NCBI GenBank assembly: GCA_016839585.1
Contig: JAEOTZ010000071.1
Location: 1 to 64,000, forward strand
DNA: 64,000 nt
Reading direction: 5' to 3'
Source: Promethearchaeota archaeon
GTDB taxonomy: Archaea; Asgardarchaeota; Lokiarchaeia; Sigyniarchaeales; SOKP01
Part shown: piece by piece, positions 48,566-55,195 of the stretch
Position numbering within the stretch: position 1 is the stretch's first letter
Layout of the letters: the number at the start of each line of letters is the position of its first letter
Program-made: the position numbers and the translations under genes
The notes under the pieces: generated by a model
Database searches by the model: none
What the model saw: only the letters and a program-made list of their open reading frames with translations
What the model was told of the DNA's origin: nothing

Positions 48566-48946
48566 ATGTCTAAAGAACCCAAAATTGAAGATTTAAAATC
48601 CAAAATAAGTTTTGGTATTAAAATCTGGTTAGAATTCGAGAATAAAAGTATATTGGGTTCAGGTTGGGCGAATTTGCTTCATAATCTCGAAAAAAATAAA
48701 GAAGGGTCATTGACTCAAGCAGCCAAAGAGTGCAATTACTCATATAAATATGCTTGGAATATATTGAAGAGGATTGAGAAAAGAACAGGTATGAGCCCCG
48801 TTGATACCAGTAAAGGCGGGAGTGGAGGTGGGGGCTGGGTAAAATTAAATGCATGGGGTAGATTTCTTTTAAAGTGTTACAATGAATATTTAGAACAAAT
48901 TAGAAAAGCTGAGAAGAGACTTGGTGAATTGATGAAAATCAATTAA
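48566..48946 (+). CDS. ModE-like (N-terminal HTH) transcriptional regulator
   Basis: KIWLE, GSLTQAAKE...SYKYAW, KGG.GGGG..LN..G. Confidence 0.88.
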   Translation: MSKEPKIEDLKSKISFGIKIWLEFENKSILGSGWANLLHNLEKNKEGSLTQAAKECNYSYKYAWNILKRIEKRTGMSPVDTSKGGSGGGGWVKLNAWGRFLLKCYNEYLEQIRKAEKRLGELMKIN

Positions 48947-49033: not shown

Positions 49034-49462
49034 ATGGTAGAAGATAAATTAAATAAATTCGGGCAAATTAAAGTATCTGAAATTATGATTTATAATCCAC
49101 TTTATGTAACTCCTGATGAGAAAATCAGTACAACAGAACTTCTAATGTTAAGAAAAAATATTGGAGGTCTTCCCGTTGTAAAAGATACAATAAAAAAACA
49201 GCTAGTTGGAATTATAACACAAAGGGACATCCGATTAGCTAGATTTGCTATGAACCTAGAATCTCCAAATAAAACTGTTAAAGATTTGATGACTCCAGAA
49301 CCATTTGTTGTTAAAAAGGACACCACTATAAAGCACGCTTTAGCGCTTACGTTTGATAAAAATATTGAACGTTTACCAGTAGTAAATGAGAATAATGAAC
49401 TAATTGGCTTATTATTACAGAACAATATTTTAAAATCACTATTAGAACATCTAAAACAATAG
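49034..49462 (+). CDS. CBS-pair protein
   Basis: IGGLPVV...LVGIITQRDI; IERLPVV...LIGLL. Confidence 0.9.
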   Translation: MVEDKLNKFGQIKVSEIMIYNPLYVTPDEKISTTELLMLRKNIGGLPVVKDTIKKQLVGIITQRDIRLARFAMNLESPNKTVKDLMTPEPFVVKKDTTIKHALALTFDKNIERLPVVNENNELIGLLLQNNILKSLLEHLKQ

Positions 49463-49618: not shown

Positions 49619-51148
49619 ATGGCAATACCTCTACCCGGAACGCCAATTATAATTGACATTGGTTCAGCATATGTAAAAATTGGTTTTGCTGGAGAACCTA
49701 GTCCTAGATTTGTATTCCCATGCATTACTGGAACAGAAAAATATAAAGCTGTATTAGTTGACGTTGGAGCGCGCAGTATATATGTCGGAAATGATGCAGA
49801 ACGTATGAGGGGCGTGTTAAAGATAAAATATCCAATACAGAGAGGCACAATTATGGATTGGGATAGTTATTATGAGATCTTAAATTATATCTTTTACACA
49901 TTATTAAGAATTGACAACCTCTATGAATATCCTGTTTTTTATACTGAAGCGCCATTCGTACAAAAAGAAACTAAGGAATATATTGCAAGAGTTCTATTTG
50001 AAACGCATAGAGTTAAAAGTTTAATGATGATGCCAACACCATTATTGTCAATATTTAGTGTTGGTCTTACATCAGGTTTGGTTATAGAAAGTGGTGATGG
50101 ATTAACCTGGGTTGTTCCAGTTGTTAATGGAAAAATAGTCCATCAAGCAGTCCAACAGCTAAAGCTTGCGGGTGTTGATGTTAATCAAAACTTAAAAAAT
50201 CTATTAATGAGGGAAGGGATAAGCATAGCATCTTCGGCAGTCGATGAAATAGTTAGGGTAATTAAGGAAAAAAATTGTCATTTCATTTTAGATCCACAAA
50301 AATCTCCTGCTACAAGGGATAAATTAAGTTATTCTATGCCTGATGGGGCGAGTTTAAATATCCCTAGCCATGTCCTCCATGAAGCTCCTGAAGTTTTATT
50401 TAATCCTAGTATATTAGGATATGGTAATGTTCTAAGCATTCAAGAAGCTATTATTACTTGTTTAAAAATTATGGATAAACAATATTGGAGTGAACTTTTA
50501 TCTCATATAGTATTTTCAGGAGGAAATCTTTCATATAGTGGTTTTCAAGAAAGATTTGAATCAGAATTAGATAAACTTCTCCCCCAGTTAGGGCGTATTC
50601 CTAAACCAGTTACTCCAATGTCTGTTGTTAAAAGTGAATTAATAAAATTACAAGCAATAGAAATTAAGAAGAAAAAAGAAGATACATGTCCTCAATGTGG
50701 AGCTTATGTGGATTTAAGCACAGGACTAGAATATTGCCCTTCTTGTAACGCTCGAATGGTAGTACCTGAAATAAAAATTGGTCCTGAAGTAGAGAAAGAA
50801 AAAAAAATGGAAAAAGGAATCACGGTTAGATGCCCAAAATGCAAAAAAGAAATAAAAGATCCTTCCTCGATTTTCTGCCCTTATTGTGGAAGAGCCATCG
50901 AGGAATTAGAGAAGGTCGGTATTCCCGAAAAAGTTAGTAAAAAAACTCCTGCTCAAGAATTTTCTGAATTTTTTGAATCTGCAAATAAACTCCTTAGATT
51001 TTTTGTTCCAGATAATCTTCAATATGCAATTTTTAATGGAGCAGCGATTTTAGGTAGTCTCCCTAGTTTTTTACAACTTTTTATTACTCATGAACAATTC
51101 CAATCTGATAAAAATTTATTATATCGAGATATCAGCGAAATACTTTAA
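49619..51148 (+). CDS. Actin-related protein with a zinc-ribbon insertion
   Basis: DIGSAYVKIGFAGE..PRFVFP, KYPIQRG, TEAP, ESGDG, EAPEVLFNPS, IVFSGG, GAAILGSL; insertion with four CxxC pairs. Confidence 0.93.
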   Translation: MAIPLPGTPIIIDIGSAYVKIGFAGEPSPRFVFPCITGTEKYKAVLVDVGARSIYVGNDAERMRGVLKIKYPIQRGTIMDWDSYYEILNYIFYTLLRIDNLYEYPVFYTEAPFVQKETKEYIARVLFETHRVKSLMMMPTPLLSIFSVGLTSGLVIESGDGLTWVVPVVNGKIVHQAVQQLKLAGVDVNQNLKNLLMREGISIASSAVDEIVRVIKEKNCHFILDPQKSPATRDKLSYSMPDGASLNIPSHVLHEAPEVLFNPSILGYGNVLSIQEAIITCLKIMDKQYWSELLSHIVFSGGNLSYSGFQERFESELDKLLPQLGRIPKPVTPMSVVKSELIKLQAIEIKKKKEDTCPQCGAYVDLSTGLEYCPSCNARMVVPEIKIGPEVEKEKKMEKGITVRCPKCKKEIKDPSSIFCPYCGRAIEELEKVGIPEKVSKKTPAQEFSEFFESANKLLRFFVPDNLQYAIFNGAAILGSLPSFLQLFITHEQFQSDKNLLYRDISEIL

Positions 51149-51338
51149 ACTTATAAATAATTTTTTCAGATTTTTTATACAAAAAAATCTCTATATATAA
51201 ATCTCATCTCAATATTTAATATTCTTTTACGTTGAAATTTTGATATAAAATCAATTAATTATAGTAATAATTATATTTCAAGTTAAATTTTAGAAATTAA
51301 AATTTAGTTATTCAGAATCATATTAAGGTTTTCTATAA

Positions 51339-52451
51339 TTGAAGAGTAAATATCTGAACCTAATTGTTATTGTTCTAGTACTCATATTTTTATTAAGTGC
51401 AATTCCTGCGGTTTTAGGTAAATCCCGCAAAAGTTACTTAATTGATTTTGTATATAGTAATGAAATTGAAGGTTATGGATTTTCAAATTCTAAGGATAAT
51501 GGTGAAACTCTTTCATTTGAAGCTACTGCTTATGCATTACAAATCTTAGATTCCTCTGGAAGGAATCCTCATGATGCTTCTTTACTTAAGGAAAATTTAA
51601 AAGAGAATATAACAGAGATACTTAATGAAGAAGTACTTATTTATGATTTATATTTTCTATTAAAATCACTTGAAATTTTAGAAGAAGAAGTTTCCATCGA
51701 TACCGCTTTAAAAAATAGAATTTTTGAATATCTTAATCAAACTGAGCAGGTTGGAGGGGGTTTTTCTATATCGAATACATCTACTTCGGTTAGTTTAAGT
51801 TCGACTTATTTTGTTATTCAAATCTATTCTTTAATTAATGAATCTGTCACTATTCATAAAGATATAACTTTACATAAAAATTGGGTATTATCTTGTAATA
51901 ATACTGATGGCGGTTATGGTGGAAATAGCAGCTTATCCTCCACATTGTTAAGTACTTATTATGCTGCTTCAATTTTAACTGATTTAGGATTCAGTCTAGT
52001 AGATGACCTAGTTAATGTTAGTCAGACTCTAGATTATTTTAAATCATTTTATGTAAACAATACGGGTGATATAAATAATTATGGGGGGTATTTACCTGAT
52101 GATTTGGCTATATTTGCTTTACTAAGCAGTACGTTTTATTGTGTTAATAAAATAGATTTAATTGAACCTCAAGACTTAAATAAGGGTCCCACAGTCAATT
52201 GGGTAATAGATCATCAAAATCTTATAGATGGGGGTTTTGTAGATACCACTTATGGTGATGAAGAAAAATTTTCTTCTATTGTCAGTTCTTATTTCGCTTT
52301 TGAGATCTTAAACATATTTAACTCTTTAAGTGTATTAAATGAAGATGTTTGGATGGTAGAGTTTAATTATTGGATTTTAATAGCAGTTTTAGGCAGTATT
52401 GGATTCACTATCTTTCTTATCTATGTTATTTGGCGAAAAAGAAGAGTATAA
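51339..52451 (+). CDS. Secreted, C-terminally anchored prenyltransferase/squalene-oxidase-repeat (alpha-alpha barrel) protein
   Basis: Signal peptide; repeats Q..GGGF, CNNTDGGYG, HQNLIDGGF with ST(Y/F)(Y/F); C-terminal TM followed by RKRR. Confidence 0.8.
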   Translation: MKSKYLNLIVIVLVLIFLLSAIPAVLGKSRKSYLIDFVYSNEIEGYGFSNSKDNGETLSFEATAYALQILDSSGRNPHDASLLKENLKENITEILNEEVLIYDLYFLLKSLEILEEEVSIDTALKNRIFEYLNQTEQVGGGFSISNTSTSVSLSSTYFVIQIYSLINESVTIHKDITLHKNWVLSCNNTDGGYGGNSSLSSTLLSTYYAASILTDLGFSLVDDLVNVSQTLDYFKSFYVNNTGDINNYGGYLPDDLAIFALLSSTFYCVNKIDLIEPQDLNKGPTVNWVIDHQNLIDGGFVDTTYGDEEKFSSIVSSYFAFEILNIFNSLSVLNEDVWMVEFNYWILIAVLGSIGFTIFLIYVIWRKRRV

Positions 52452-53518: not shown

Positions 53519-53974
53519 ATGGCTATCCTTGAAGTGGGCGTGAATTTAGGCACTAAGAATCTTATCGAAATTAAATACTATTCTTCCTCAGATAATGTTT
53601 TGGATGCCGATTTAAGAGCAGGATTCCTTTCTGCTTTAGAATCCTTCACATCTGAAGTCTTTGGTGACAATATAAATGTAGTATCTCTTGCCTCATTTAA
53701 ATTAGTCTGCTATTCGGAAATGATTGCTTTACCAGGGGATGATCCTAATAATAAGCAACCTATATTATCTTATGCCATAATTGAAAAAGAAACAGACACA
53801 ACAATGGTTAAACAATATTTGACTGAAATTTTATCTTATTTTCTTAATAGATATTCTCTCAATGATATCTTTGAAAAAAAATATAAATACTTTAAAACAT
53901 TTGAGAGTCGAATCAATGAAATTTTAGGCGATTTAAAACTAAAAACAGAAGATAGATTCCGATCTATATTTTAA
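53519..53974 (+). CDS. Stand-alone longin-like domain protein
   Basis: LDADLRAGFLSALESFTSEVFG helix matches the longin-like segments of two other proteins in the window; ends FKTFESRINEIL. Confidence 0.6.
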   Translation: MAILEVGVNLGTKNLIEIKYYSSSDNVLDADLRAGFLSALESFTSEVFGDNINVVSLASFKLVCYSEMIALPGDDPNNKQPILSYAIIEKETDTTMVKQYLTEILSYFLNRYSLNDIFEKKYKYFKTFESRINEILGDLKLKTEDRFRSIF

Positions 53975-53995: not shown

Positions 53996-55195
53996 TTGAG
54001 CTCTAATTTACCACCTCAAGCTAAAGTCAAATATCAAGAGTATTTAGATGCTGGTTCTTTAGAGGAAAGAATAAAAAAACTTGAGGAATTTTTATCTTTA
54101 GTTCCTAAACATAAAGCTACAGAAAAAATAGTAGCGCTAAATCGCTCTCGCTTAGCTAAATTGAAAAAAGAATTTGAAAAAAAGCGACATAAACAAAAAA
54201 GTACTCAAAAAATTATATCTCCCTTTTCAATAAAGAAAGAAGGAATTCAAATAATCCTAATCAGTGATTTCCATATACCTGGAGCTGGTAAAACTTCTCT
54301 TTTAAATTATCTAACTGGCGCTGCGAAAGAAAAGATTGGTAAATTTACCCCAATTCCAGAAATAGGAATTTACGAATATAATAAAATTAGATATCAAATT
54401 GTTGATATGCCTTCAATAATGGAGGGGGCTTCAAATGGAATTGGAAATGGTAAGGAAATTCTTTCTCAGCTAAGATCTTGCGATTTAATTTGCGTTTGTA
54501 TTGATTTATCACGCAATTATGAAGAACAAATGAACCTATTATTAAATGAATTAAATAACGCAAATATAAGGATAAATATTCCTCCACCACCAATAACAAT
54601 TGAAAAAACAGGTTCTAATAAAATTCAAGTCTTATACTTGACAAGTGAAGCAAAAAACATTAATGAAAATCTTGATGAATTAACTGAAAGAATAAAAGAA
54701 ATCGTTCATGAAGGTGGCCTCAGAAATGCAATAGTCAGGGTTTATGGTAGAATTACACTTGAAAAAGTTGTTGATGCACTAAATCCTTCAATAGTTTATA
54801 AAAAAGCAATTATAATTGGAACAAAGGGGGATCTAGCTCATACTCAAGAAGTATTTGAAAATTTAAAAAAATTATATTCAGAAACATTTCCAATAATCAT
54901 TGGAACTAGTGTAAAAAAAAGTGAATTTCCAGATAATTTTGGCGAAATTTTACTAAAATATTTGGATAAAATAAGAATCTACACTATGAATTCTGGAATA
55001 ATTGCAGAAAAGCCATTAATTATCGATAAAGAAAATGCTACTGTAAAAGAGGTTGCAAATAAAATCCATAGAAGTTTTGTTGAGTTATTCGATCATGCAA
55101 TAATAATCAGAGAAGCAGATCGCCAAAAGCGTAAAAAAGTAGGTACAGAATATCAATTAAAAGATAATGATGTTATTGAACTACACTTAATTTAA
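53996..55195 (+). CDS. DRG/OBG-family GTPase with a TGS domain
   Basis: PKHKATEK, GAGKTS, FT..P..G, QIVDMP, G.G.GKE, TKGD, KIHRSF, L.DND. Confidence 0.88.
   Translation: MSSNLPPQAKVKYQEYLDAGSLEERIKKLEEFLSLVPKHKATEKIVALNRSRLAKLKKEFEKKRHKQKSTQKIISPFSIKKEGIQIILISDFHIPGAGKTSLLNYLTGAAKEKIGKFTPIPEIGIYEYNKIRYQIVDMPSIMEGASNGIGNGKEILSQLRSCDLICVCIDLSRNYEEQMNLLLNELNNANIRINIPPPPITIEKTGSNKIQVLYLTSEAKNINENLDELTERIKEIVHEGGLRNAIVRVYGRITLEKVVDALNPSIVYKKAIIIGTKGDLAHTQEVFENLKKLYSETFPIIIGTSVKKSEFPDNFGEILLKYLDKIRIYTMNSGIIAEKPLIIDKENATVKEVANKIHRSFVELFDHAIIIREADRQKRKKVGTEYQLKDNDVIELHLI

Follow-up and report, generated by a model that had tools for sequence, protein, structure and literature searches.

What an archaeal cell may do with an actin fold that carries zinc ribbons inside it is the question raised by a gene at positions 49619 to 51148 of the window, the stretch of 64,000 nucleotides (positions 1 to 64,000 of contig JAEOTZ010000071.1, assembly GCA_016839585.1) from a Promethearchaeota archaeon of the order Sigyniarchaeales (Lokiarchaeia) that was analyzed as a whole. 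The encoded actin-related protein (ARP) belongs to a zinc-ribbon ARP subfamily that is confined to this one order. The data show the architecture of the protein, how well it is conserved, that it arose once, which active-site residues are substituted and that the fold is that of actin. From the sequences and a structural model, we infer that the protein binds a nucleotide without hydrolyzing it, forms no canonical polymer and serves as an adaptor. The best explanation at present, to which we give an even chance of being correct, is an ATP-binding, poorly hydrolyzing, non-canonical ARP in which a tethered ribbon acts as the adaptor. The gene is laid out as follows, all features lying on the + strand (aa, amino acids; SD, actin subdomain; D-loop, DNase I-binding loop; pLDDT, predicted local distance difference test):

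49619..51148, +, zinc-ribbon ARP gene, an uninterrupted open reading frame of 509 aa, stop codon included
49619..50599, +, N-terminal part of the actin fold, residues 1-327 (SD1, SD2, SD4 and the larger part of SD3)
49736..49777, +, D-loop equivalent, residues 40-53, with strong conservation in the family
50036..50038, +, T140 at the position of the catalytic actin Q137 in alignments, nearly invariant across the family
50108..50110, +, W164 aligned with actin H161, invariant; E157 replaces D154 nearby
50600..50674, +, insert part 1, residues 328-352: proline-rich IPKP stem, short helix (333-343), lysine-rich tail
50675..50767, +, predicted zinc ribbon 1, residues 353-383 (C357, C360, C373, C376), present in all family members
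50768..50818, +, inter-ribbon linker, residues 384-400, variable (conservation 0.52) and predicted to be disordered (pLDDT <50)
50819..50902, +, predicted zinc ribbon 2, residues 401-428 (C405, C408, C420, C423)
50903..50989, +, linker 2, residues 429-457, acidic, predicted to be disordered, with a conserved 'EF' motif
50990..51145, +, C-terminal part of the actin fold, residues 458-509: post-insert strand and C-terminal helices of SD3 and SD1

A first-pass annotation of the locus had described a clear actin fold that is broken by about 130 aa with four zinc knuckles and then resumes up to the actin C-terminus. Both points hold, and the boundaries can now be given exactly. The Pfam Actin family (PF00022) matches residues 9-324 (E 2e-67; 228 bits versus a cut-off of 27), and the four actin subdomains are recovered in an AlphaFold2 (AF2) model, as is expected of a member of the actin family. 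In phmmer searches against the PDB, residues 6-327 align with actin up to about residue 326, while residues 458-497 align from about residue 327 onwards. The best match is 9wc4 ('HC1 actin', 1e-68), followed by yeast and muscle actins, with E-values ranging from 1e-65 to 1e-69. Because the actin alignment splits at 327/458, the insert comprises residues 328-457 (50600-50989, about 130 aa) and is located between actin K326 and I327, in the SD3 loop that follows the 309-320 helix. Within it, Zn_ribbon_3, DUF7575 and DZR are all annotated at residues 357-426 and each passes its curated Pfam cut-off (e.g., 37.7 bits versus 27 for DZR, PF12773, and 31.5 versus 27.3 for Zn_ribbon_3, PF13248).

The four CxxC knuckles (C357/C360, C373/C376, C405/C408 and C420/C423) follow the pattern CPxCG...FCPxCG and, with their CxxC pairs, correspond to two predicted zinc ribbons. 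All eight cysteines are conserved in at least 98% of 119 full-length homologs, in which the linkers are variable. In an alignment of 45 sequences, the cysteines are invariant and so is F448 of linker 2. Four parts of the insert are constant across the order: a stem of the type 'LPxLG-P-(I/L)P', ribbon 1 itself ((D/G)(T/N)CPxCG...CxxCG), an 'IxI' segment behind ribbon 1 and an acidic tail that contains the motif E-(F/Y). The AF2 model was built from a 90-sequence alignment that includes distant orthologs and ordinary actins, as the shallow 45-sequence alignment (≥63% identity) gave a model with a pLDDT of 52.6, which was set aside. The retained model has a mean pLDDT of 85.2 and a predicted template modeling score of 0.75, with most of the actin core above 90, and Foldseek aligns it to actin chains with a template modeling score of about 0.9 (normalized to the target). 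Ribbon 1 (pLDDT 81-88) and ribbon 2 (around 83) are modeled with short beta strands, while the linkers at 344-349, 384-399 and 430-448 remain below 50. Given this alternation of high ribbon and low linker values, the ribbons look like folded beads on flexible tethers.

Could such an architecture be an accident of one assembly? The first-pass annotation had kept open that the insert might be missing from close orthologs, and the artefacts to be considered are an assembly error, a chimera from gene calling and the insertion of a mobile or intein-like element. Nothing speaks for any of these. In a large protein collection, full-length relatives with 501-510 aa and 63-96% identity number more than 100, and all of them carry both the Actin and the zinc-ribbon Pfam annotations. 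Members occur in all four GTDB families of one Lokiarchaeial order, here denoted f1 to f4, with f1 being the family of the window. A query with the insert alone retrieves an open reading frame of about 500-536 aa in 131 out of 134 f1 species genomes, loci of f2 and f3 likewise encode an actin with insert (514-555 aa), and f4 as well as two closed genomes of f3 show the same combination. Exact look-up identified the f3 copies UYP44711.1 of Candidatus Lokiarchaeum ossiferum and MCF2140085.1 of Candidatus Harpocratesius repetitus. The same in-frame architecture is thus present in hundreds of independent assemblies, closed genomes included, the insert co-diverges with the actin core and all copies form a single clade (see below). 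Misassembly, gene fusion and intein-like insertion are ruled out by this recurrence and the single clade, and the probability left to an artefact is negligible.

Outside the order, the architecture was not encountered in the sequences examined. Five genomes with a completeness of 82-94%, which represent sister orders within the same class, have as their best matches just Lokiactin-type proteins of about 380 aa. When 1.84 billion cluster representatives were scanned in full with HMMER, the architecture was confined to the nine best matches, seven of full length and two fragments, and the CxxC pairs are missing in all inspected matches below those nine. Queries with the insert alone also return weak matches (E 1e-4 to 1e-6) from further Asgard classes; these are generic zinc ribbons, and the one that was inspected (L023) is not an actin. 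Public databases list family members as 'zinc ribbon domain-containing protein', 'actin-related protein' or 'centractin'. Databases and one published tree already include members of the family, while the zinc-ribbon subfamily itself is undescribed in the literature searched. In the Asgard and actin literature that was searched, a zinc-ribbon insert is described for no Asgard actin or ARP, nor is this architecture reported there for an ordinary polymerizing actin; a 2026 paper on crawling motility does not discuss ARPs.

A tree calculated without the insert columns unites the 38 insert-bearing sequences in one clade with maximal support (100 in the Shimodaira-Hasegawa-like approximate likelihood ratio test, SH-aLRT) and a stem length of 0.54. 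The branching within this clade tracks the GTDB families, with f4 basal, followed by f3 and f1. This pattern fits a single acquisition and subsequent vertical descent within one order. The clade stands apart from Lokiactin, but its placement relative to Lokiactin and other actins collapses into a polytomy in this tree, which did not include labelled Arp1-10 sequences. The number of ribbons is less constant than the clade itself. Two are present in f1, f2 and most of f3, and one in f4 and in the L. ossiferum ortholog. Ribbon 2 is cleanly missing in this ortholog (L029) and in all f4 members (L026-L028), while P0126, the sister sequence closest to the L. ossiferum ortholog, has both ribbons. As this sister has retained both, at least two gain or loss events are required for ribbon 2.

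The genome holds four actin-family genes: a Lokiactin-type gene, two further paralogs and the zinc-ribbon ARP, which is the only one of the four with an insert. The Lokiactin, which as the conserved Asgard actin is expected in one copy per genome, scores 443 bits to Pfam Actin and is 56% identical to muscle-type actin. The zinc-ribbon ARP is 36-40% identical to the Lokiactin of its own genome and 32% to actin. This low identity, the separate clade with support 100 and the presence of a distinct Lokiactin gene all set it apart from Lokiactin. The proposal of a specialized Asgard ARP is in this sense upheld, as the zinc-ribbon ARP forms a monophyletic paralog lineage of its own, passed on by vertical inheritance, beside a true Lokiactin and two other paralogs. 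Of the latter, one is a divergent actin (L002, contig C37:91058-92146) that is 32% identical to the zinc-ribbon ARP, and the other (L004, contig C47:41869-42975) is 22% identical and sits on a branch of 2.5 substitutions per site.

Whether this paralog still works as an actin depends first on its nucleotide pocket. The phosphate-loop and adenine-pocket residues D13, G15, S16, K20, S158-G159-D160-G161, K216, E217, G301-G302 and Y306 are kept. Across the family, the motifs D13-x-G15-S16...K20, S158-G161, K216-E217 and G301-G302 are invariant or nearly so, as in other members of the actin family; the P-loop residues are assigned here from HMMER alignments, as the first P-loop columns are misaligned in the order-wide alignment. 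As both the actin fold and the pocket are intact, the zinc-ribbon ARP very probably binds ATP or ADP. The catalytic residues tell a different story. Actin Q137, H161, D154 and H73 are replaced by T140, W164, E157 and R75, respectively, each of which is invariant or nearly so across the family. In actin, Q137 and H161 position the attacking water, and it is this pair, characteristic of the canonical polymerization-activated ATPase, that has given way to T140 and W164. Since the water-activating residues are replaced family-wide, hydrolysis is expected to be poor or absent, and the protein is probably a slow or non-hydrolyzing 'locked' ARP and not an actin that treadmills.

The second determinant is the filament surface. 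In F-actin, SD3 residues 322-325 make a longitudinal contact with residues 243-245 of the next subunit, while K326, K328 and R147 bind tropomyosin (PMC7247010, a review). Because tropomyosin binds there, K326, K328 and R147 must be exposed on the filament. The insert begins directly after the 322-325 contact and inside the exposed K326/K328 patch, so that an insert on tethers of 25-30 residues might collide with the subunit that follows or else project outward; geometry alone favors neither. The suggestion in the first-pass annotation that the insert possibly blocks normal polymerization is therefore not established: the site adjoins the contact, yet it sits in the exposed patch. An alignment-based survey of the interfaces gave an order-wide mean conservation of 0.71. 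SD2 61-65 (0.99), the barbed-end cleft (0.79) and the D-loop (0.73) exceed this mean, whereas SD3 283-294 (0.52) and the lateral segments 110-115 (0.52) and 170-175 (0.47) fall below it, with just one or two residues in each of these three identical to actin. In the D-loop, E40, K41, Y42, K43, V45, V47 and D48 are invariant among the 45 aligned sequences. The weak conservation of SD3 283-294 and the lateral segments is a hint against canonical homopolymerization, and the overall pattern fits, as indirect evidence, a protein that may bind partners via its pointed face and cleft and that has not kept the canonical two-stranded lattice.

These surfaces can also be read in favor of a polymerizing paralog, which would build its own filaments or co-polymerize with Lokiactin and display the ribbons as binding sites along the tropomyosin-type groove. 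We regard this as unlikely, though as the most probable of the rival readings. The insert lies at 326/327, where K326 and K328 are exposed on F-actin, and its disordered linkers of 25-30 aa would leave the ribbons room to project. The D-loop is retained and highly conserved, the 'PDG' at 243-245 is kept, the LPxLG equivalent of 322-325 is conserved, and the best PDB matches are actins proper. Set against this are the replacement of the catalytic Q137 and H161, the SD3 283-294 and lateral segments being the least conserved ones, and an identity to the Lokiactin of the same genome as low as that given above.

The asymmetry between the two ends of the protein suggests yet another role, i.e., that of a filament-end factor. 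Its D-loop/SD2 face would dock on the barbed end of Lokiactin and the insert would stop the next subunit, making it a capper or, with the opposite effect, a seed for nucleation. In favor of this, the 322-325 longitudinal contact is directly followed by the insert, and conservation is strong in the D-loop and SD2 61-65 but not in the barbed-side SD3 283-294. Transcript levels that are low compared with those of Lokiactin would suit a sub-stoichiometric role: in L. ossiferum, Lokiactin transcripts are several-fold more abundant than those of the other actin homologs, UYP44711.1 included (PMC9834061). The reasoning behind this role is, however, purely geometric and draws on neither coordinates nor a modeled complex, the ribbons might be carried away from the interface by their long flexible linkers, and the good conservation of the barbed-end cleft is unexpected if that face were merely blocked. 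A filament-end factor of this strict kind therefore seems rather improbable.

The adaptor explanation accommodates both the pocket and the surfaces. The nucleotide would remain bound with little or no hydrolysis, giving a 'locked' actin fold that would not behave as a canonical homopolymer. From the SD3 loop at actin 326/327, this fold would present the stem, the short helix, an obligatory ribbon, an optional second ribbon and the acidic tail. The conserved D-loop/SD2 face and the barbed-end cleft would dock on Lokiactin (as a monomer, at a filament end or along the side) or on a partner helix, and the tethered ribbon or ribbons would recruit a second ligand, either a protein or a nucleic acid. 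An adaptor function of the zinc ribbons, which would be in keeping with the model of folded modules on tethers, is plausible. A more specific version is a dedicated coupling or end-binding factor, in which the ATP-locked fold sits on Lokiactin and the ribbon links filaments to the envelope, the nucleoid or another machine; we put this forward tentatively, as a possibility that is on balance doubtful. Several points weigh against the adaptor explanation. Some ARPs with altered catalytic residues still hydrolyze ATP. The D-loop and a segment of plug length are kept, as in a polymerizing actin, and ribbons that point outward from the exposed K326/K328 patch make (co-)polymerization sterically conceivable. 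The interface survey is based on sequence alignment and lists of known contact residues rather than on coordinates. Finally, no ligand can be named for the ribbons, because their matches are limited to generic zinc-ribbon families.

These matches deserve a closer look, as they bear on the nature of the second ligand. Compared with the PDB, the insert profile yields CxxC matches of a generic kind, i.e., C2H2 arrays, eL43, NOB1, RpoP and Nop10. Profile matches of the ribbons to RpoP/Rpo12, RpoM, eL43, NOB1 and YacG are weak (E 1e-3 to 1e-1), NCBIfam contains nothing specific for the ribbons, and nothing usable came from the ESM Atlas when it was searched with the insert. A nucleic-acid- or transcription-linked ARP following the logic of the nuclear Arp4, Arp5 and Arp8, in which the ribbons and the lysine-rich stem bind DNA, RNA or RNA-polymerase-type partners, could draw on the RpoP/Rpo12, RpoM, eL43 and NOB1 matches, on the net charge of about +4 of linker 1 (stem and lysine-rich tail) and on a conserved upstream gene for a ModE-like winged-helix protein. 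Yet each of these ribbon matches is of the generic CxxC type, the charge of the ribbons is close to neutral or acidic (mildly acidic for ribbon 1, as for linker 2), and no remodeler ATPase or HSA-type partner is visible near the ARP gene. We consider this reading improbable.

The gene neighborhood provides the remaining evidence on partners. The window contains the following genes and signals around the ARP gene (TM, transmembrane):

48566..48946, +, ModE-N-like winged-helix gene (TIGR00637, E 1.6e-14, below cut-off), syntenic upstream neighbor
49034-49462, CBS-pair gene directly upstream of the ARP gene, separating it from the winged-helix gene in the window
51161..51176, +, two T6 runs, 13-28 nt past the ARP stop codon, read from the sequence
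51339..52451, +, gene for a toroid protein (Pfam Prenyltrans, E 2.2e-19), syntenic downstream neighbor
53519-53974, +, gene for a 151-aa protein without Pfam or NCBIfam match, 21 nt upstream of the GTPase gene
53996-55195, +, gene for a DRG/Obg-type GTPase with MMR_HSR1 and TGS domains

The block ModE-like winged helix-turn-helix (HTH) protein, CBS pair, ARP, prenyltransferase-like toroid protein and FolD recurs with this gene order in f1, f2 and f3, with the CBS pair being seen solely in the 11 inspected loci of the window's own genus. The toroid protein consists of a signal peptide, an alpha/alpha-toroid ectodomain, one C-terminal TM helix and a basic tail of about 6 aa. Its gene directly adjoins the ARP gene, with the same orientation, in nearly all of the more than 120 genomes of f1-f4 in which both positions are available; the exceptions are two genomes with the genes on different contigs and one with a 2.4 kb gap. 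Accordingly, a functional link between ARP and toroid protein is possible. In its strongest form, the ARP would couple the actin cytoskeleton to the cell envelope together with this surface-anchored protein, an idea favored by the fact that the adjacency persists from f1 to f4 even where toroid identity drops to 25-29%. Several observations make it a low-probability reading nonetheless. FolD and the HTH gene are equally syntenic with the ARP gene, and the block may simply rearrange slowly; the cytoplasmic tail of the toroid protein offers just about six residues; several g13 genomes keep the ARP and show no match to the toroid gene; and the T-runs behind the ARP stop codon, possibly an archaeal terminator, suggest that the next gene is transcribed separately.

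A few further observations concern the neighbors themselves. The ModE-N-like protein is small and lacks molybdate-binding domains, and its position upstream of the ARP gene is conserved in f1 and f3. The toroid protein is conserved within the order at 25-57% identity, and elsewhere in the phylum only weak matches occur (E 1e-9 to 1e-13). Further downstream, the 151-aa protein falls into Promethearchaeota-only clusters of the ESM Atlas and points weakly (0.88) to a cluster with Fuz_longin_1 in 34% of its members; together with the DRG/Obg-type GTPase, it may form a pair of a longin-like partner and a GTPase.

Asgard ARPs are often cited as evidence for a regulated, eukaryote-like cytoskeleton, and to our knowledge none of them has a described function in the searchable literature. 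The zinc-ribbon subfamily is near-universal in the order of L. ossiferum, which is grown in enrichment culture, and is thus directly accessible to experiments. A ribbon partner, once demonstrated, would reveal how an archaeal actin network connects to other structures of the cell. Also at stake is whether actin paralogs that serve as adaptors are older than eukaryotes or have arisen in parallel.

Among known systems, Lokiactin shares with the zinc-ribbon ARP the fold, the phosphate loops, a similar D-loop length and the aligned C-terminus. It differs by the absence of an insert and by the presence of Q137 and H161, and in the barbed-end cleft 14 of its 18 residues match actin versus 7 of 18 in the zinc-ribbon ARP. 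UYP44711.1 of L. ossiferum is a true ortholog, situated inside the clade with the insert at the same site and the same gene neighbors, but it is shorter (499 aa), has one zinc ribbon and a longer acidic tail, and is about 39% identical to the window protein. It is one of three unnamed L. ossiferum 'ARPs' of Rodrigues-Oliveira et al. 2022 (PMC9834061), whose tree places it among Asgard and eukaryotic ARPs and who measured its transcript by reverse transcription quantitative PCR; that paper mentions neither the zinc-ribbon insert nor a function for this protein.

The ribbons resemble the stand-alone prokaryotic families DZR (PF12773), Zn_ribbon_3 (PF13248) and DUF7575 (PF24460), sharing their pattern and passing their cut-offs, but in stand-alone double zinc ribbons the module is placed at a protein terminus, whereas here it lies inside the actin fold. 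These Pfam families have no defined ligand. Among eukaryotic ARPs, none is known to us to carry a zinc-ribbon insert. In their logic, Arp3, Arp5 and Arp8 are nonetheless alike, as they use the actin scaffold with loop insertions that make new binding surfaces. Reportedly, the insert of Arp3 is even found in the loop before the same strand, which we take as a lead only. If the coupling or end-binding version of the adaptor explanation were true, the zinc-ribbon ARP would be an archaeal, independently evolved counterpart to the way in which eukaryotes have made adaptors out of actin paralogs, as in Arp2/3, in Arp1/Arp11 of dynactin and in the nuclear ARPs.

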